From the UHGV virus genome UHGV-0166592: a stretch of DNA of 14,585 nt, one strand, 5' to 3'. Below the pieces are notes generated by a model. That model was not told the origin of the DNA. It was given only the letters and a program-made list of their open reading frames with translations, and made no database searches. Numbering within the stretch: position 1 is the stretch's first letter; every line of letters begins with the position of its first letter. This document shows, one piece after another, positions 6,573 to 14,535 of this stretch. A program made the position numbers and the translations under genes. Source of the DNA: a virus.

Positions 6573-7199
6573 TTAGAGTTCGTATTGAACTCCTTTGACT
6601 ACACCAATGATAAGGCAATTACCATTGATAGGGATGTTGGGATACCGAGGATTTAATGGCACTAAAAACTTTTGAGGGCCATCGATGACTAATTTTTTTA
6701 CTGTAGCTTCGTTTGTTCCATCAAGTCGAGCGATGACTATTTTTCCATGACGAGGTTCTGCATCTGGATCTACAATCACTGTTGCGCCTTCTGGTATTGT
6801 TGGGAGGCCATTAGGGTTAGTCATGGAGTCACCTTTAACCTCTAATGCAAATGAGTTATCACCAATCTTTAATGATGTATCTACCCACTTGTCCACTTCA
6901 CTAAACACTTCTGCTGCCCTGCACTCAGTAAACTGCCCAGCCTGAACCCACGATATTACAGGAACTCTGCGCATGTTTGTGACGAGTTTGCCTTCAAACT
7001 CAGCACCATAAAGAATGTAATCTATTGACGTATTGAAGAACTTCGCTAATTTCGAAAGTGCCTCCCCACCAGGGGTATTGATGTCTTTCTCCCAGTACCC
7101 CACAGCAACGTCGCTTACTCCACAAAATTTACCCAATTCTTTCTGGGACGTTCCGGTAACTCTTCTCAGAGCTTTTATACGCTGACCAACCGTTTCCAT
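6573..7199 (-). CDS. cI: CI-type prophage repressor (N-terminal XRE-family HTH, C-terminal S24 LexA-like peptidase)
   Basis: 208-aa ORF. The N-terminus (QRIKALRRVTGTSQKELGKFCGVSDVAVGYWE) is an HTH; the C-terminus has the S24 Ser/Lys dyad context (GDSMTNP ... TVKKLVIDG). It is divergent from the cro-like gene. Confidence 0.9.
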   Translation of the reverse strand: METVGQRIKALRRVTGTSQKELGKFCGVSDVAVGYWEKDINTPGGEALSKLAKFFNTSIDYILYGAEFEGKLVTNMRRVPVISWVQAGQFTECRAAEVFSEVDKWVDTSLKIGDNSFALEVKGDSMTNPNGLPTIPEGATVIVDPDAEPRHGKIVIARLDGTNEATVKKLVIDGPQKFLVPLNPRYPNIPINGNCLIIGVVKGVQYEL

Positions 7200-7296
7200 A
7201 GGAGCACCATTTCTTGAATTGCTAAGTAATCTTAGTTTTTATTGACCAAAGATAGATTTGTAATTAGCATCTAATAAAACTTAGTTTGGAGGGCGT
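7200..7296. promoter_or_regulatory. Divergent cI/cro control region (OR-like) with operator palindromes
   Basis: 97-bp AT-rich interval between the divergent cI and cro starts. It contains the inverted repeat CTAAG-TAAT-CTTAG (7222..7235), the palindrome AAACT-T-AGTTT (7277..7287) and a candidate -35 TTGACC (7242..7247). Exact pR/pRM positions are not resolved. Confidence 0.6.
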
Positions 7297-7497
7297 ATGA
7301 CAACTGACGATATCGAAAGCTACTTCGGCAGTATTGAGAAAGTTGCTGCTTTTTTCGGCATAACAACTGAAGCCGTTTATCAGTGGCGAAACCGTCCGGG
7401 CCAGTTAATTCCAAAAGGACGTGCAGCAGAAGCTGCATATAGAACTTGCGGACGGTTGCCATTTAAACCTGAGCTTTATGAAAAATCTAATGGATAA
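7297..7497 (+). CDS. cro: Cro-like small HTH regulator (YdaS-type)
   Basis: 66-aa ORF divergent from cI, with RBS GGAGGG before ATG 7297. HTH-like segment GSIEKVAAFFGITTEAVYQWRNR. Confidence 0.8.
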   Translation: MTTDDIESYFGSIEKVAAFFGITTEAVYQWRNRPGQLIPKGRAAEAAYRTCGRLPFKPELYEKSNG

Positions 7498-8086
7498 ATC
7501 GATTAACAGAAACCACAGAACGATGAGGCTAACCGTGGGTAAGCATCACTGGAAAGTAGAAAAACAGCCTGAGTGGTACGTGAAAGCTGTCAGAAAAACT
7601 ATCGCAGCGTTGCCGGGTGGTTACGCTGAAGCAGCTGACTGGCTGGATGTAACAGAAAACGCATTATTTAACCGCCTTCGTGCCGATGGCGATCAGATTT
7701 TCCCGCTGGGATGGGCAATGATTTTGCAACGTGCTGGTGGAACTCACTTCATTGCTGACGCTGTGGCGCAGTCTGCAAATGGCGTCTTTGTGTCTCTTCC
7801 TGACGTCGAGGATGTGGACAACGCCGATATTAACCAGCGCCTGCTGGAAGTCATTGAACAGATTGGCAGTTATTCCAGACAGATTCGTTCGGCAATCGAA
7901 GACGGTGTGGTGGAACCGCATGAGAAGACAGCAATTAACGACGAGCTGTATCTCTCAATTTCGAAGCTGCAGGAGCATGCAGCACTGGTCTACAAAATCT
8001 TTTGCGTTTCAGAAAGTAGTGACGCCCGCGAGTGTGCAGCTCCGGGCGCCGTGGCGTGTCGTGACTGTGGAGAAACTAACGCATGA
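7478..8086 (+). CDS. CII-like / YdaT-family early regulator (start uncertain)
   Basis: The ORF immediately follows and overlaps cro. Possible starts are 7421, 7478 and 7490; none has a strong RBS. Its position after cro and its size fit the phage CII/YdaT-type regulators as I recall them. Confidence 0.5.
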
Positions 8087-8421
8087 ACAGTTTAACAACA
8101 CACTACCGTCGCTCGCAACTGATTGCGCTTCCTGTACCGGGTGGAAAAGCGAAGGTGGAGTATTGCTATGCAGTTAATGTACCAGGTGACAGGGAAATTG
8201 TAACCCACAGCTTTGCTGAGTGGGCTGTGGGTGATTTCAACCGGCAGAAGGAGACAGTCCTTTGCGACAAGTTAACCGCTGGTTCAAAGATCACTACGGA
8301 GTGCCCGTCAGAGTCATTCGTTGGGAGCCGGAAACACAACGAGTTATCTACCTCCGCGAAGGCTATGAGCATGAGTGCTTCAGCCCGCTCGAACAGTTTC
8401 GTCGTAAATTCAGGGAAATAG
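8083..8421 (+). CDS. Hypothetical protein, frame 1 (overlaps a better-looking alternative frame in its 3' half)
   Basis: ATG 8083 overlaps the upstream stop (ATGA), with GGAG 10 nt upstream. The C-terminal third translates to low-complexity S/A-rich sequence, suggesting that part is not the genuine frame. Confidence 0.3.
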
Positions 8422-8441
8422 AGGTCGGTCATGAGCACTAA
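8262..8441 (+). CDS. Candidate small protein, DUF4222-like, non-ATG (TTG) start
   Basis: The frame-3 translation [58 protein letters not shown] looks protein-like. There is no in-frame ATG; TTG 8262 lies 8 nt after a strong RBS AAGGAGA (8248..8254). It ends TAA 8439..8441, overlapping the replication gene start. Confidence 0.3.
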
Positions 8442-9372
8442 ATTAACCGGCTATGTATGGGATGGTTGCGCTGCATCAGGCATGAAATTATCCAGCGTGG
8501 CAATTATGGCCCGCCTGGCTGATTTCAGTAATGACGAAGGTGTGTGCTGGCCATCAATTGAAACCATTGCCCGCCAGATTGGCGCGGGGATGAGTACCGT
8601 CAGAACGGCTATCGCACGGCTGGAAGCAGAAGGCTGGTTAACGCGTAAGGCGCGTCGCCAGGGTAACCGCAATGCGTCGAATGTTTATCAGCTTAACGTT
8701 GCGAAGCTTCAGGCAGCGGCATTTTCTCAACTGTCAGATTCTGACCCGTCAAAATCTGACGCATCAAAATCTGACCCGTCAAAATTTGATGCGTCGAAAT
8801 CTGGCAAAAAAGCGGGTTTTCACCCGTCAGAATCTGGTGGGGATCCGTCAGTAAAATCAAAACATGATCCGTCAGATAAAAAAACTTCTCGTCCGGACGC
8901 TTCGCAACCGGACACGCAGACGGCTGAACAGGATTTTTTAACTCGCCATCCTGATGCGGTTGTATTCAGCCCTAAAAAGCGCCAGTGGGGGACGCAGGAT
9001 GATTTGACCTGCGCACAGTGGCTCTGGAAAAAAATCATCGCCCTGTACGAGCATGCCGCCGAATGTGACGGCGAGGTGGTTCGTCCCAAAGAACCGAACT
9101 GGACAGCCTGGGCAAACGAAATTCGCCTGATGTGTGTGCAGGATGGTCGTACTCATAAACAAATCTGCGAGATGTACAGCCGCGTCAGTCGCGATCCGTT
9201 CTGGTGCCGTAACGTGCTCAGCCCGTCGAAGCTGCGGGAAAAATGGGATGAGCTTTCCCTGCGCTTATCGCCGTCCATCAGCACATACACAGAAAAACGC
9301 GAAGACCCGTATTTCAAATCCAGTTACGACAACGTGGACTACAGCCAGATCCCGGCAGGATTCAGGGGGTGA
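8431..9372 (+). CDS. Replication initiation protein (N-terminal winged HTH, C-terminal DnaT-like domain)
   Basis: 313-aa ORF with RBS GAGG 6 nt before ATG 8431. The N-terminus (VAIMARLADFSNDEGVCWPSIETIARQIGAGMSTVRTAIARLEAEGWL) is the wHTH of phage initiators; the C-terminus (TCAQWLWKKIIALYEHAAE...) resembles DnaT-type domains. The central linker is encoded by iteron-like repeats. Confidence 0.8.
   Translation: MSTKLTGYVWDGCAASGMKLSSVAIMARLADFSNDEGVCWPSIETIARQIGAGMSTVRTAIARLEAEGWLTRKARRQGNRNASNVYQLNVAKLQAAAFSQLSDSDPSKSDASKSDPSKFDASKSGKKAGFHPSESGGDPSVKSKHDPSDKKTSRPDASQPDTQTAEQDFLTRHPDAVVFSPKKRQWGTQDDLTCAQWLWKKIIALYEHAAECDGEVVRPKEPNWTAWANEIRLMCVQDGRTHKQICEMYSRVSRDPFWCRNVLSPSKLREKWDELSLRLSPSISTYTEKREDPYFKSSYDNVDYSQIPAGFRG
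8731..8885 (+). repeat. Iteron-like 15-bp repeats inside the replication gene; candidate origin
   Basis: Five tandem 15-bp units at 8731..8805 (e.g. CCGTCAAAATCTGAC, GCATCAAAATCTGAC, CCGTCAAAATTTGAT), then three spaced copies at 8824, 8845 and 8869, followed by an A-rich tract. Confidence 0.6.
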
Positions 9373-9374
9373 GC

Positions 9375-9863
9375 ATGAGTCTTTTGAATGAAGTTCAGAA
9401 ATTCATTGAAGCCCATCCGGGGTGTACTTCCGGAGACATTGCGGATGCTTTTGCAGGTTACTCACGACAGCGCGTTCTGCAGTCAGCAAGCAAGTTACGT
9501 CAGAGTGGGCGTGTGGCTCACCGTTGTGAAGGGGATACACGCAGACATTTCCCGCGCCTGACTGAGAGAGCGCAGGAGCCGGAACCACAACCAGTTCGTG
9601 AAACCAGACCTGTGCGCAATTTCTATGTCGGCACTAACGATCCACGGGTGATTTTGTGCCTGACCCGCCAGGCTGAAGAACTGGAGTCCAGGGGCCTATA
9701 CCGTCGTGCTGCAACGGTGTGGATGGCGGCATTCCGTGAAAGCCACTCCCAGCCAGAACGAAACAATTTTCTGGCGCGTCGTGAGCAGTGCTTACAGAAA
9801 AGCAGCAAGCGCGCTGCATCGGGTGAAGAGTGGTATCTGTCAGGGAATTACGTGGGGGCTTAA
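9375..9863 (+). CDS. PerC-like transcriptional regulator
   Basis: Start placed at ATG 9375 (GTG 9369 is possible). The segment AEELESRGLYRRAATVWMAAFRESHSQPERNNFLARREQCL resembles the PerC/Pch motif as I recall it. Its stop overlaps the next start as TAATG. Confidence 0.5.
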   Translation: MSLLNEVQKFIEAHPGCTSGDIADAFAGYSRQRVLQSASKLRQSGRVAHRCEGDTRRHFPRLTERAQEPEPQPVRETRPVRNFYVGTNDPRVILCLTRQAEELESRGLYRRAATVWMAAFRESHSQPERNNFLARREQCLQKSSKRAASGEEWYLSGNYVGA

Positions 9864-10516
9864 TGAGTAATAAATATTGCCAGGCGCTGGTGGAACTGCG
9901 GAACAAACCAGCCCATGAACTGAAGGAAGTGGGCGATCAGTGGCGCACGCCGGACAACATTTTCTGGGGAATTAACACCCTGTTTGGCCCGTTTGTTCTG
10001 GATCTGTTCACTGACGGTGATAACGCCAAATGTGCTGCGTATTACACGGCGGAAGACAACGCGCTGGCGCATGACTGGTCAGAACGTCTTGCGGAGCTAA
10101 AAGGTGCTGCCTTTGGTAATCCCCCATACAGCCGCGCCAGTCAGCATGAGGGGCAATACATCACCGGCATGCGTTACATCATGAAACATGCCAGTGCCAT
10201 GCGTGATAAGGGCGGGCGCTATGTTTTCCTGATCAAAGCTGCCACCAGCGAAGTGTGGTGGCCGGAAGATGCAGATCATATTGCTTTTATTCGCGGGCGT
10301 ATTGGTTTTGAACTGCCTGCCTGGTTTATCCCGAAGGATGAGAAGCAGGTGCCGACAGGCGCTTTCTTCGCTGGTGCTATTGCTGTTTTCGACAAGACCT
10401 GGAAGGGACCGGCAATCAGCTACATCGGGCGCGATGAACTTGAGGCATGTGGTGAGGCGTTTCTGGAGCAGGTTCGTCAGCAGGCGGAAAAACTGGTCAG
10501 GGAGATGGCGGCATGA
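9863..10516 (+). CDS. Phage Dam-type DNA N6-adenine methyltransferase
   Basis: Start at ATG 9863 (MSNKYCQALVELRNK...). Contains the catalytic NPPY motif (AFGNPPYSR) and an upstream WRTPD segment typical of phage Dam-family enzymes. Confidence 0.85.
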   Translation: MSNKYCQALVELRNKPAHELKEVGDQWRTPDNIFWGINTLFGPFVLDLFTDGDNAKCAAYYTAEDNALAHDWSERLAELKGAAFGNPPYSRASQHEGQYITGMRYIMKHASAMRDKGGRYVFLIKAATSEVWWPEDADHIAFIRGRIGFELPAWFIPKDEKQVPTGAFFAGAIAVFDKTWKGPAISYIGRDELEACGEAFLEQVRQQAEKLVREMAA

Positions 10517-10839
10517 CGACGTTAACTCAATGCCAGCAGCAGGTGCTGGATATGCTGATTTCTTATCAGAAAGAACGTGGTTTCCCGCCAACCAATCAGG
10601 AGGTGGCAACCATGCTGGGATACCGTTCGGTGAATGCAGCGGTGGAGCATCTTCGTGCGCTGGAGAAAAAAGGCGTCATCACGATAAAGCGTGGCGTGGC
10701 CCGGGGGATAACGCTTCATACCGCGGTGAAGGACGACGACAGCGAGGCGGTCGGGATTATCCGCTCACTGCTTGCCGGTGAGGAAAACGCCAGGCTGCGT
10801 GCAGCCCACTGGTTACATGAGAGGGGCCTGAAAGTATGA
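10513..10839 (+). CDS. LexA N-terminal-like winged-helix DNA-binding protein
   Basis: 108-aa ORF; QQQVLDMLISYQKERGFPPTNQEVATMLGYRSVNAAVEHLRALEKKGVI resembles the LexA DNA-binding domain, with no peptidase domain. ATGA overlap with the Dam stop. Confidence 0.6.
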   Translation: MTTLTQCQQQVLDMLISYQKERGFPPTNQEVATMLGYRSVNAAVEHLRALEKKGVITIKRGVARGITLHTAVKDDDSEAVGIIRSLLAGEENARLRAAHWLHERGLKV

Positions 10840-11225
10840 AGCTGATTCTGCCTTTTCCGCCCAGCGTGAACACGTACTGGCGACACCCCAACAAAGGGGC
10901 GTTTGCTGGTAAGAGCCTGATAAGCGCGGCGGGGCGAAAATTCCAGAGTGCGGCGTGCGCAGCAATAGTTGAGCAGTTACGTCGTCTGCCGAAACCAACG
11001 TCGGCACCTGCTTCAGTGGAGATCGTGTTGTTTCCTCCGGATAACCGGATCCGCGATCTGGACAACTATAACAAGGCGCTGTTTGACGCCCTGACCCACG
11101 CGGGTGTGTGGGAAGACGACAGCCAGGTGAAAAGAATGCTGGTGGAGTGGGGACCGGTTATCCCGGAAGGGAAGGTCGAGATCACTATCAGTAAGTACGA
11201 GAAAACGGCGGGTGCAGCCGCCTGA
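10836..11225 (+). CDS. rusA: Holliday junction resolvase RusA
   Basis: 129-aa ORF; the N-terminal LPFPPSVNTYWRH and the Asp-rich region (IRDLDNYNKALFDALTHAGVWEDDSQV) fit RusA. ATGA overlap with the upstream gene. Confidence 0.85.
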   Translation: MKLILPFPPSVNTYWRHPNKGAFAGKSLISAAGRKFQSAACAAIVEQLRRLPKPTSAPASVEIVLFPPDNRIRDLDNYNKALFDALTHAGVWEDDSQVKRMLVEWGPVIPEGKVEITISKYEKTAGAAA

Positions 11226-11244
11226 TCAAGAGGAGAAACGAAGT

Positions 11245-12087
11245 ATGAATAATCTGATGGTCATTGATGGTATTGAAGTTCGTCGTGATGCTTATGGGCG
11301 TTACAGCCTGAACGATCTGCATCGGGCTGCTGTTGCATCTGGTGCAAATGCCAGAACTAAGGAGCCGGGAAAGTTTCTTTCCAGCCAACAGATTACTGAG
11401 CTGGTTCAGGAATTGATCGATACCCAAAATTTGGGTGTCGGTTCATTCAATGAAACTACCCAAAATTTGGGTAGTAAACCAGTAAGTAAAATAGAAGGGC
11501 GGAATGGAGGAACGTATGTCTGCAAGGAACTGGTGTATGCCTATGCAATGTGGATCAGCCCGTCATTCCATCTGAAGGTGATCCGTACTTTCGATATGGT
11601 AACCAGCGCACCGGAAAAATTATCCGGGCAGGCTGCTGACAAGATGCAGGCTGGAGTGATTCTGCTGGACTTTATGCGCAGGGAGTTAAACCTGTCTAAC
11701 TCTTCAGTGCTTGGGGCCTGTCAGAAACTCCAGGAGGCTGTTGGCTTACCGAATCTGGCACCGCGCTATGCCATTGATGCTCCTGCTGACGCGCCTGATG
11801 GCTCAAGCCGCCCCACGCTGTCACTGAGTGCATTGCTGAAGCAGTATGGTATCCGCCTGACAGCTAATCAGGCATATCACCAGATGGTGAAGCTGGGGAT
11901 CGTCGAGCAGCGCGAACGATACAGCCGTACCGCGATTAACAACATCAAAAAATTCTGGTCGCTGACGGCGAAAGGCTGCATGTTCGGCAAGAACATCACC
12001 AGTCCTGCAAATCCGCGCGAGACGCAGCCGCATTTCTTCGAATCCCGATTCCCTGAGCTGTTAAAGCTGCTCGATACCGTACATTGA
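11245..12087 (+). CDS. KilA-N domain protein (antirepressor-like)
   Basis: Start at ATG 11245 with RBS AGGAG 9 nt upstream. The N-terminal region (YSLNDLHRAA ... KELVYAYAMWISPSFHLKVIR) is KilA-N-like. Confidence 0.75.
   Translation: MNNLMVIDGIEVRRDAYGRYSLNDLHRAAVASGANARTKEPGKFLSSQQITELVQELIDTQNLGVGSFNETTQNLGSKPVSKIEGRNGGTYVCKELVYAYAMWISPSFHLKVIRTFDMVTSAPEKLSGQAADKMQAGVILLDFMRRELNLSNSSVLGACQKLQEAVGLPNLAPRYAIDAPADAPDGSSRPTLSLSALLKQYGIRLTANQAYHQMVKLGIVEQRERYSRTAINNIKKFWSLTAKGCMFGKNITSPANPRETQPHFFESRFPELLKLLDTVH
11421..11473. repeat. Two copies of the 16-bp near-palindrome TACCCAAAATTTGGGT inside the KilA-N gene
   Basis: Exact copies at 11421..11436 and 11457..11472, 36 bp apart. Each has half-sites ACCCAAA / TTTGGGT. 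Confidence 0.7.
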
Positions 12088-12088
12088 G

Positions 12089-13084
12089 GTGACCGTGAGA
12101 GCACTACTGACCCCTGAAATTGCCCCGCGTATGGGGATCGTATTGTTCAGACCAGGTTCAGAGCTGATGCCCCTGTTTATGCAGGGGCGTGTCCTGCTGG
12201 AGCCTGAGCCGGAACGTTATTCATCTTTCGCCAGTGGTGCCGTTCCGGCGGCATCACAACCGCTGGCGGATGATCCTGCCGTTCGGGCCGTGTTCCGCAA
12301 TGAGGCAGTGATCCGTCGTGCTGGTGGCGTGGAATGTCTTGAAAGCTGGTTACTTCGTGAAAAAGGCTGCCAGTGGCCTCATTCCGACTGGCACAGCGAG
12401 AACATGACCACAATGCGACACGCGCCGGGCGCAATCCGTCTGTGTTGGCACTGCGATAACCAGTTGCGTGATCAGTTCACGGAACGGCTGGAATCAATGG
12501 CAACGGATAACTGTGCCCACTGGGTGTTATCTGTCGTGCGTCGGGATCTCGGTTTTGATGACAGTCACGTTGTGACAATGCCGGAACTGTGCTGGTGGCT
12601 GATTCGTAATGACCTGGCGGATGCCTTACCGGAAAGTGCAGCCCGTAAGGCACTGAGATTACCGAAGCCGGTTGTGCCGTCTGTCACCCGGGAGAGTGAC
12701 CTTGTTCCTTCGGTTCCTGCCACCAGCATTATCCAGGATAAAGCGAAAAAGGTGCTGGCGCTGAAAGTGGATCCAGAGTCGCCGGAGTCTTTTATGTTAC
12801 GCCCAAAACGTCGCCGCTGGGTTAATGAAAAGTACACGCGCTGGGTTAAGACACAGCCGTGTGCATGTTGTGGAAAGCCTGCTGATGATCCCCACCACCT
12901 GATAGGCCATGGTCAGGGTGGAATGGGTACAAAAGCGCATGACCTCTTTGTGTTGCCTTTGTGCAGAAAGCATCACGACGAGCTGCATGCGGATACCGTG
13001 GCATTTGAAGAGATGTATGGCTCCCAGCTGGAGCTGATATTTCGTTTTATCGATCATGCGCTGGCAATAGGCGTACTGGCGTAA
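12089..13084 (+). CDS. DUF968-like protein with Cys/His-rich C-terminus (start uncertain)
   Basis: 331-aa ORF with a GTG start at 12089 and a weak RBS. The C-terminus CACCGKPADDPHHLIGHGQGGMGTKAHDLFVLPLCRKHHDELH fits DUF968/HNH-like prophage proteins as I recall them. Confidence 0.65.
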   Translation: MTVRALLTPEIAPRMGIVLFRPGSELMPLFMQGRVLLEPEPERYSSFASGAVPAASQPLADDPAVRAVFRNEAVIRRAGGVECLESWLLREKGCQWPHSDWHSENMTTMRHAPGAIRLCWHCDNQLRDQFTERLESMATDNCAHWVLSVVRRDLGFDDSHVVTMPELCWWLIRNDLADALPESAARKALRLPKPVVPSVTRESDLVPSVPATSIIQDKAKKVLALKVDPESPESFMLRPKRRRWVNEKYTRWVKTQPCACCGKPADDPHHLIGHGQGGMGTKAHDLFVLPLCRKHHDELHADTVAFEEMYGSQLELIFRFIDHALAIGVLA

Positions 13085-13097
13085 GTGGAGAACGAGC

Positions 13098-13850
13098 ATG
13101 AACCTTGAAGCCTTACCAAAATATTACTCCCCAAAATCTCCAAAATTGAGCGATGACGCACCGGCGACAGGCTCAGGTGGTTTAACGATTACGGATGTGA
13201 TGGCTGCGCAGGGGATGGTGCAGTCGAAAGCACCGCTTGGGTTTGCCTTATTCCTGGCAAAAGTTGGTGTTCAGGATCCTCAGTTTGCGATTGAAGGTCT
13301 GCTCAATTACGCGATGGCAATGGATAACCCGACATTGAACAAATTGAGTGAAGAAACCCGGTTACAGATCATCCCTTACCTTGTGAGTTTTGCCTTTGCT
13401 GATTATTCCAGGTCTGCGGCAAGTAAGGCTCGCTGTGAGCATTGTGCTGGTACTGGATTTCATAGTGTATTGCGCGAAGTGGTGAAACACTCCAGAAGCG
13501 GGGAATCTGTTATCAAGGAAGAGTGGGTGAAGGAATTATGTCAGCATTGCCATGGTAAGGGAGAAGTCAGCACGGCTTGCAGAGGGTGTAAGGGTAAAGG
13601 CATTGTCCTGGATGAAAAAAGAACCCGGCTTCATGGCGCGCCTGTTTATAAGATTTGTGGGCGTTGCAATGGAAACCGGTTTAGTCGTTTACCGACCACA
13701 CTGGCACGACGTCATGTCCAGAAGCTGGTACCAGACCTGACTGATTATCAGTGGTACAAAGGATATGCAGACGTCATTGATAAACTGGTAACAAAGTGCT
13801 GGCAGGAAGAAGCATTCGCTGAAGCACAATTGAGAAAGGTGACGAGATAA
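13098..13850 (+). CDS. Late-gene antitermination protein Q
   Basis: 250-aa ORF with RBS GGAG before ATG 13098. The N-terminus MNLEALPKYYSPKSPKLSDDAPATGSGGLTITDVMAAQGMVQSKAPLGFALF matches lambdoid Q proteins as I recall them; Cys-rich zinc-binding region CEHCAGTG ... CQHCHGKG ... CRGCKGKG. Confidence 0.85.
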   Translation: MNLEALPKYYSPKSPKLSDDAPATGSGGLTITDVMAAQGMVQSKAPLGFALFLAKVGVQDPQFAIEGLLNYAMAMDNPTLNKLSEETRLQIIPYLVSFAFADYSRSAASKARCEHCAGTGFHSVLREVVKHSRSGESVIKEEWVKELCQHCHGKGEVSTACRGCKGKGIVLDEKRTRLHGAPVYKICGRCNGNRFSRLPTTLARRHVQKLVPDLTDYQWYKGYADVIDKLVTKCWQEEAFAEAQLRKVTR

Positions 13851-13990: not shown

Positions 13991-14004
13991 ACACGGGGAT
14001 ATGG

Positions 14005-14535
14005 ATGTTATACCGAGATCTTTTGCCTATTTTCTCAGAAAGACCCATATTTAAAGCTCCTGAGGCTGAAAGAATACTTCGTGAGCAATATTCTATCGCC
14101 GCCCCCACTCCTGTAATTCAGGAGATTTATTATGGATTGGCAGGTTATGACAGATTTCAGGAGCTTTATGGGGATCTTAATATTGACCAAATCGAATGGA
14201 AATTGATTGAACTTCCCACTAAAAATTTTTTAACTATCGGGGATAATGCTACTTACCCTGATTTTTTGCATGAGGTCGTTGAAGATTTCACAACCCGTAA
14301 AGGCGATGTATTTATGGATGATGAAATAAAAGCGCATTGGTGTAATTTTGGCACATGGTGTGAACCTCCATTTTTTATAGATCGAGCTTTGCTGAAAAGT
14401 AATACAACAGGGCTTCATTTAATGGAAGGGCATACAAGAGTTGGAACCCTGTTAGGGGCAGTTAAGTATAACTTCGTTAAGCTTGCTAATACTCATAAAA
14501 TTTATTATGCGCAAGCAAAAGAATGTATTAAATAA
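14005..14535 (+). CDS. Hypothetical 176-aa protein; AT-rich cargo gene downstream of Q/tR'
   Basis: ORF with RBS GGGGA 5 nt before ATG 14005 and TAA at 14533..14535. It is markedly more AT-rich than the flanking phage genes. I recognise no family. Confidence 0.65.
   Translation: MLYRDLLPIFSERPIFKAPEAERILREQYSIAAPTPVIQEIYYGLAGYDRFQELYGDLNIDQIEWKLIELPTKNFLTIGDNATYPDFLHEVVEDFTTRKGDVFMDDEIKAHWCNFGTWCEPPFFIDRALLKSNTTGLHLMEGHTRVGTLLGAVKYNFVKLANTHKIYYAQAKECIK

Follow-up and report, generated by a model that had tools for sequence, protein, structure and literature searches.

The prophage gene at 9375-9863 is a copy of yfdN, a two-domain early gene of lambdoid phages of the SfV/mEp460 type. It lies on the + strand of the window, by which we mean the whole 14,585-nucleotide stretch of UHGV virus genome UHGV-0166592 that was analysed. 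Our best explanation, offered tentatively and held at somewhat less than an even chance, is that YfdN serves the phage as an early DNA-binding regulator that uses a PerC-type core, by a mechanism that we infer from its architecture, its position, and the behavior of PerC-family proteins. Control of host virulence as its primary function is improbable. A predicted winged helix and a near-constant pairing with DNA methyltransferases of unrelated families provide handles for genetic study in SfV and mEp460, both of which can be cultured.

Identity and distribution of the gene

9375..9863, + strand: yfdN-type gene, 162 aa (open reading frame, Pfam, PHROG, and comparison with K-12 YfdN)

The open reading frame runs from ATG 9375 to the stop codon TAA at 9861-9863 on the + strand, exactly where a sequence-only reading of this DNA had placed it, and encodes 162 aa. 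RefSeq starts yfdN at GTG 9369 (164 aa). ATG 9375 appears the more credible start because AGGGGG at 9364-9369 stands 5 nt 5′ of this ATG and overlaps the GTG, and because divergent YfdN homologues all begin MSL... The same reading had called the gene PerC-like on the basis of an LE..GLYRRAA..W motif. The motif is literally present at residues 103-116 (L-E-S-R-G-L-Y-R-R-A-A-T-V-W; nt 9681-9722; LESRGLYRRAATVW), and the family assignment holds up against Pfam-A, in which PerC (PF06069) is the sole match for the protein (E=6.6e-9, 36.3 bits against a gathering cut-off of 22.6 bits). This match covers residues 98-149 and positions 5-56 of the 90 in the profile, leaving positions 57-90 unmatched. 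PHROG 1324, described as "transcriptional activator," matches over the full length (residues 1-161, 9.7e-78). A PDB sequence search with window YfdN returned no match at E<=10, and PADLOC gave no match for YfdN.

Window YfdN and E. coli K-12 YfdN (b2357), the latter encoded in the cryptic prophage CPS-53/KpLE1, share 97% identity across 164 residues. Matches to the yfdN DNA occur in 2668 of 5426 complete E. coli genomes (2547 at full length), where RefSeq labels the product "PerC family transcriptional regulator" and often names the gene yfdN. Matching phage records number 49, among them SfV (orf40), mEp460 (gp44), and Stx2c-converting phages, with nucleotide identities of 97.5-97.8% between the window gene and the SfV and mEp460 copies. 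Among 5.8 billion proteins searched, there were hundreds of near-identical clusters under the same name. A profile search of 1.84 billion cluster representatives recovered only 159 clusters at E<=1e-3, about 40 of which are 133-165 aa long and retain both domains at 23-47% identity to window YfdN. Among these relatives the two-domain architecture and the C-terminal tail are conserved down to ~25% identity, and so is the genomic position. Scans of viral contigs with four divergent homologues (P0130, P0184, P0206, and P0232) found nothing, and tblastn of P0184 against sequenced phages found only SfV, mEp460, and the Stx2c group. Many database entries (P0024, P0033, P0057, P0106, and others) have yfdN fused to or truncated with the initiator N-terminus, RusA, or Dam. 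These are probably deletions or frameshifts in decaying prophages and account for the stray "HTH_36/GntR/PaaX + PerC" domain strings that precomputed annotations contain.

As an identification this is not new and contributes nothing further: existing annotation already gives this gene the name yfdN or the label PerC family, both in several phages and in about half of all complete E. coli genomes. Previous studies called yfdN "the K12 unique PerC homologue" (PMC5931665), and UniProt-derived text lists YfdN as uncharacterised (bioRxiv 10.1101/2025.05.07.652715). Over-expression of yfdN produced a glycogen-accumulation phenotype, either an excess or a deficiency (PMC2853380). A five-gene region of UTI89 that includes yfdN2 was enriched in a filamentation screen (PMC6206680), and in CFT073 yfdN is among the nitric-oxide-responsive prophage genes (PMC5320621). 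These published phenotypes are indirect and settle no function.

Domain architecture and predicted structure

9375..9554, + strand: predicted winged helix-turn-helix domain, residues 1-60 (AlphaFold2, Foldseek, weak MarR-type sequence matches)
9555..9641, + strand: variable Pro/Glu-rich linker, residues 61-89 (AlphaFold2 confidence, homologue alignment)
9642..9821, + strand: PerC-type core of three helices, residues 90-149 (Pfam at nt 9666-9821, AlphaFold2, PchE and PchA alignments)
9831..9857, + strand: conserved C-terminal tail W-Y-L-S-G-N-Y-V-G (homologue alignment, AlphaFold2)

In an AlphaFold2 model of window YfdN, built with a 20-sequence alignment, the N-terminal domain consists of helices at residues 3-13, 19-25, and 31-44 followed by a beta-hairpin (47-52/55-60), at pLDDT 81-89. 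Foldseek matches this domain to winged helices of the ArsR/SmtB, MarR, MecI/BlaI, DsrD, and SSV1 F-93 types at ~2 A over ~60 residues, with superpositions that include SmtB, MepR, MecI, DsrD, and F-93; the E-values are weak (0.03-0.2) and the fold class is uniform. Sequence matches to MarR-type HTH families over residues 6-68 are likewise weak (phrog_1687, 8e-5; NCBIfam BilQ, 0.003, scoring 17 bits against a cut-off of 125), and no Pfam winged-helix family matches window YfdN at E<=1. The domain has a net charge of +3, with +6 on the recognition helix and wing (family mean +3.2), and the net charge is positive for both YfdN domains. The model and its structural matches thus support a winged helix-turn-helix of MarR/ArsR-like fold at residues 1-60, where the sequence-only reading had suspected an extra winged helix over about 60 residues; DNA binding by this domain is only predicted. 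So far unannotated, the predicted winged helix is a modest addition to the existing annotation.

The linker is modelled with low confidence (block mean pLDDT 44-70, falling under 50 at residues 64-79), and its length differs from one homologue to the next. The PerC core that follows forms helices at residues 90-105, 109-122, and 126-149 (pLDDT ~90), and structure matches to the model place its fold in a TPR/MIT-like class. Such folds usually bind protein rather than DNA, and three-helix matches are generic. The tail has the consensus L-[AS]-G-[RN]-[YF]-x-G, each Gly being present in 39/45 divergent homologues, yet residues 150-162 have low model confidence and are modelled as disordered. This combination of conservation and predicted disorder suggests that the tail may be a docking or short interaction motif.

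These properties of the core and tail bear on the possibility that YfdN is an ANR-like anti-activator or modulator, whose PerC core would not itself activate but would attach to a regulator of host or phage origin, such as an AraC-type activator, H-NS, or RNA polymerase. The NCBIfam model ANR_neg_reg (NF033650) matches residues 96-141 (E=9.4e-5), TPR/MIT-like cores are typical of peptide-binding modules, and the conserved disordered tail suggests docking; the authors of a study in which a PICI PerC-family protein repressed LEE1 also suspected ANR-like function (PMC11773190). However, the match scores 22.2 bits, below the curated cut-off of 32, and for this reason ANR family membership was not adopted for YfdN. 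ANR proteins are small and single-domain whereas YfdN also bears a winged helix, and the Pch authors mention, as unpublished observations, that Pch neither co-precipitated with H-NS nor bound Ler (PMC4764244). We regard an ANR-like role as unlikely.

The early operon and its neighboring genes

The window carries a lambdoid prophage integrated at tRNA-Arg(tct) (1187-1263) near folD, with an integrase gene at 1279-2442. Carriage by a prophage, as proposed from the letters alone, is borne out by this tRNA, the integrase, and cI/cro/cII, O-like, Dam, RusA, and Q genes, all of which are present. The gene order is integrase, early-left yfdT to yfdP homologues, cI, cro, a cII-like gene, and phrog_1170, followed by O-like, yfdN, Dam, a protein with a LexA DNA-binding domain (LexA-DBD), RusA, KilA-N, DUF968/HNH, and Q. 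The same order is found in SfV, mEp460, K-12 CPS-53, and 36 to 50 metagenomic and genomic loci.

6573-7199, minus strand: cI, S24 peptidase
7242..7270, + strand: predicted pR-like promoter TTGACC-17-TAGCAT, between cI and cro (consensus scan only)
8431..9372, + strand: O-like replication initiator (HTH_36; phrog_391)
9863..10516, + strand: phage Dam-family N6-adenine DNA methyltransferase

The O-like stop codon TGA (9370-9372) ends 2 nt before the yfdN ATG, the yfdN Shine-Dalgarno sequence lies within the last O-like codons, and the yfdN stop overlaps the Dam ATG (TAATG). By this arrangement yfdN appears to be translationally coupled to O-like upstream and to Dam downstream. A consensus scan of the + strand from 7270 to 11300 predicted no further promoter or terminator, and we therefore read yfdN as part of the pR early operon. 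Since it lies in that operon and has no predicted promoter of its own, yfdN should be switched on together with the early lytic genes and should stay silent in a stable lysogen.

Other features of the prophage accompany this arrangement. The argU site is shared with DLP12, folD (50-916) is only ~270 bp from tRNA-Arg tct, and the integrase is intD-type. In several matching genomes the same ends span ~20 kb including sfm/fim fimbrial genes, a block that the window's strain background appears to be without. The longest cII-like open reading frame (7421-8086, from GTG 7421) overlaps cro (7297-7497) by 77 nt; RefSeq gives ymfL in a near-identical APEC O78 prophage a later start, at ~7535 in window coordinates, which is the more likely one. 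Inside the O-like gene, 8719-8880 holds about six repeats with a 15-bp period (consensus TCTGACCCGTCAAAA) and internal dyad symmetry, which encode a repetitive SDxSKSDxSK peptide. By analogy with lambda O, this array looks like origin iterons embedded in the initiator gene. At 10513-10839 (+) lies a 108-aa protein with a LexA DNA-binding domain only (PF01726, 2.9e-19) and no S24 peptidase domain, which from its domain content could, when made from the phage early operon, repress SOS boxes in the manner of a LexA that cannot be cleaved. Finally, GC content falls to 0.38 at 14001-14500, the most AT-rich stretch of the window, just 3′ of Q (13098-13850); an H-NS-bound late-promoter or cargo region is plausible there.

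The place of yfdN beside the initiator is that of lambda P, and YfdN might accordingly be a replication accessory that bridges the O-like initiator and the host helicase. In 36 related lambdoid loci yfdN always abuts or overlaps the initiator, and no P, DnaB, or DnaC homologue was found in the window. However, Salmonella prophages (L044 and L045) carry an O-like gene, a true Phage_lambda_P, and a yfdN-type gene in series, and the Klebsiella homologue (L040) has AlpA on one side and recombination genes on the other, at a distance from all replication genes. On these two grounds we rejected YfdN as a lambda-P substitute. Moreover, window YfdN has no Phage_lambda_P Pfam match, SfV and mEp460 combine the same YfdN (95-98% identical) with different initiators, and at least three initiator C-terminal types occur alongside a single YfdN type. 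The idea is essentially refuted, and we leave it only a very small probability. Nor is there evidence for a specific partnership between YfdN and its initiator: their co-variation is only moderate (Spearman 0.4-0.6), as expected for adjacent genes, and there are clear counter-examples, namely SfV and mEp460, and two loci (L034 and L033) in which a window-like initiator N-terminus accompanies a divergent YfdN.

The initiators themselves show a mosaic arrangement. Those of L002, L010, L031, L032, L034, and L038 have unrelated N-terminal and middle parts and a conserved ...IPxGFRG end, and the last ~24 residues of the window (9301-9372) and SfV initiators are exactly or nearly identical, in codons that hold the yfdN Shine-Dalgarno sequence. 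The IPxGFRG tail may mark a junction at which modules are exchanged by recombination, or it may have a function of its own.

On the downstream side, a DNA methyltransferase gene directly follows the yfdN-type gene in 42/46 informative loci, a count drawn from loci that carry a yfdN-type gene. Among the remaining loci, 2/46 have the methyltransferase one gene further and 2/46 have none (L010 and L011). The junctions are overlapping or abutting in the loci checked, usually with overlapping stop and start codons, and the downstream enzymes belong to four unrelated Pfam families:

Dam (PF05869) downstream of yfdN: window, SfV, and L042
MT-A70 (PF05063) downstream of yfdN: most IMG/VR loci, L050, and L052
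D12 (PF02086) downstream of yfdN: L037
C5 (PF00145), alone or fused to D12, downstream of yfdN: L044 and L048; one gene away in Klebsiella L040

The genes at window 9863-10516 and in L008, L037, L040, L042, L044, L048, L050, and L052 occupy one slot, with non-homologous replacement of the methyltransferase.

This near-constant neighbor raises the possibility that YfdN is a partner or controller of a phage orphan DNA methyltransferase, affecting its timing, its level, or its targeting to DNA. Direct adjacency in so many loci and across four unrelated families favors such a role. So does K-12, where yfdN is followed by yfdM, a methyltransferase fragment, and so does Klebsiella, where the yfdN-type gene is away from the replication genes and still two genes upstream of a C5 methyltransferase. 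However, the sampled loci come from related lambdoid phages and their counts are not independent. There are also yfdN-type genes with no methyltransferase (the two loci above), and a LexA-DBD gene directly follows yfdN in 8 of the top 15 E. coli genome matches. A recombination-prone cargo slot between conserved genes predicts the same pattern, such that the observations are compatible both with a functional link and with a cargo slot that has conserved genes on either side. We consider a role as partner or controller of the methyltransferase unlikely.

An early DNA-binding regulator of phage genes, our preferred though tentative reading, is favored by the Pfam and PHROG identity, the two-domain model, the positive charge, and the conserved early-operon position. 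Under such a model YfdN would be made only on prophage induction or on infection of a new cell, and its winged helix would bind DNA. The PerC core might then act as Pch does at LEE1, where Pch relieves H-NS/StpA/Hha silencing (PMC4764244), by remodeling or displacing H-NS-type silencing complexes or another bound protein. Phage early-to-middle genes would thereby be expressed, possibly including the adjacent methyltransferase. GC content is 0.51-0.57 over 8001-13000, and because the yfdN region is not AT-rich, a need for counter-silencing there is not evident. Furthermore, both DNA binding by the winged helix and action on H-NS are inferred, the Foldseek E-values for the winged helix are weak, and the core belongs by generic matches to a class that more often binds protein. 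The Pch mechanism may also not transfer, as YfdN has only the first ~50 residues of PerC/Pch in common.

Virulence and the relation to PerC-family proteins

PchE (ECs_1588, 90 aa) and PchA (ECs_1091, 104 aa) of the Sakai genome served as comparison proteins. BLASTP aligns window YfdN residues 94-145 with PchE 1-52 (38% identity over 52 residues) and residues 100-143 with PchA 7-50 (39% identity over 44 residues), whereas the C-terminal half of PerC/Pch finds no alignment in window YfdN with either the Pfam profile or BLASTP. The core motif LE-x-[KR]G-x-YRRAA-x2-W is present in all three proteins (LESRGLYRRAATVW in the window, LEKKGLYRRAAERW in PchA, and LEAKGFYRRAAARW in PchE). At 162 aa, with winged helix and linker added, window YfdN departs from the ~90-105 aa single-domain PerC format. 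Because only the ~50-residue core is common, and a winged helix, a linker, and another tail take the place of the rest, its sequence marks YfdN as a PerC-domain protein rather than a PerC/Pch orthologue.

The sequence-only reading had gone further and suggested that a prophage-borne PerC-like gene could tie the state of the prophage to virulence control in the host. On this view YfdN would be an activator that turns on host virulence loci such as LEE. In its favor, the PerC-family core of YfdN is genuine and 38-39% identical to those of PchA and PchE, ler is indeed activated by group 1 Pch and by PerC (PMC5931665, PMC4764244), and Uhlich et al. deleted yfdN from a K-12 ler::lacZ reporter strain as a precaution (PMC5931665). 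However, the C-terminal half of PerC/Pch, corresponding to the unmatched profile positions 57-90, is missing from YfdN. Activation of ler is also restricted to group 1 Pch and PerC, with PchE giving <2-fold and PchD none (PMC5931665; also PMC6265319), and the PICI PerC-family protein EcCIMP1_025 represses LEE1 (PMC11773190). Across complete E. coli genomes, ler is found in 697/5426 and yfdN in 2668, so that at least 1971 of the 2668 carriers (74%) are without ler/LEE; K-12 also carries yfdN. Furthermore, yfdN lies in the pR operon, which is repressed in the lysogen, and group 1 pchA sits elsewhere, in a cargo position beside IS629 near lysis genes.

Given core-only similarity, mostly LEE-less carriers, and the pR-operon position, the proposed link between prophage state and virulence control is unsupported, and we consider an activator of this kind quite unlikely. 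Cross-talk from YfdN to PerC-responsive promoters is unproven rather than excluded, and if YfdN does affect host virulence genes, it would do so incidentally, in those hosts, a minority, that have such loci. A prophage gene that carries the label "PerC family" should not for that reason be taken for a virulence regulator, because most carriers are LEE-less, only a ~50-residue core is common, and other non-group-1 homologues are inactive or repressing. One broader possibility is that proteins of the YfdN type (winged helix, PerC/TPR-like core, and docking tail) form a conserved class of their own among lambdoid early regulators, with a phage-centered role in methyltransferase control or targeting or in sequence-targeted counter-silencing, and that the short virulence regulators PerC and Pch are stripped-down derivatives of this phage and satellite lineage. 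Taken jointly, these propositions are doubtful, and we put them forward as speculation.

Compared with K-12 YfdN, SfV orf40, and mEp460 gp44, the window gene shows essentially no difference and is the same gene, in the same local order of O-like, yfdN, and methyltransferase. The K-12 copy lies in a decayed prophage with truncated neighbors (yfdO and yfdM fragments), whereas the window prophage is intact-looking and sits at argU.

PerC (EPEC pEAF) and PchA/B/C have in common with YfdN the helical core A-x2-LE-x-[KR]-G-x-YRRAA-x2-W ... R-x2-C, and all belong to PF06069. In contrast to YfdN, PchA is a single-domain protein with a second C-terminal region that YfdN is missing, Pch and PerC are demonstrated activators of LEE1/ler, and pchA is carried as cargo close to lysis genes while yfdN is an early-operon gene. 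In Sakai (L046), pchA is at locus positions 33366-33680 on the minus strand, isolated beside IS629 copies between the Q/tRNA region and the Sp4 lysis genes.

PchE and PchD (EHEC groups 3 and 2) and PICI-borne PerC-family proteins such as EcCIMP1_025, as YfdN does, combine a PerC core with replication-proximal operons of mobile elements, and their behavior is not that of LEE activators (PMC5931665, PMC6265319, PMC11773190). PchE differs in being without a winged helix and in lying after SSB and before capsid genes in the 15-kb element Sp7. Its over-expression leads to repression of csgD and curli and to higher flagellar expression (PMC6265319, PMC7369912). In Sakai (NC_002695.2, L006, record 1594711-1610171), pchE is at locus positions 41773-42045 in the 15-kb "untypable prophage" Sp7, whose order is integrase, primase, SSB, pchE, major capsid, protease, portal, adaptor, and terminase; by gene content, Sp7 resembles a capsid-forming phage satellite. 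In the same SSB-to-capsid position as pchE, two "plasmids" (L004 and L005) carry short PerC genes.

Beyond the PerC family, HTH + TPR regulators of the PlcR/Rap/AimR type are like YfdN at a generic fold level only; YfdN has one and a half TPR-like repeats and no evident peptide-signal system. The ANR family (e.g., Aar; NF033650) weakly resembles the YfdN core, at a score below the family cut-off (22.2 vs. 32), and both are small, helical, positively charged modules, whereas ANR proteins have no DNA-binding domain.
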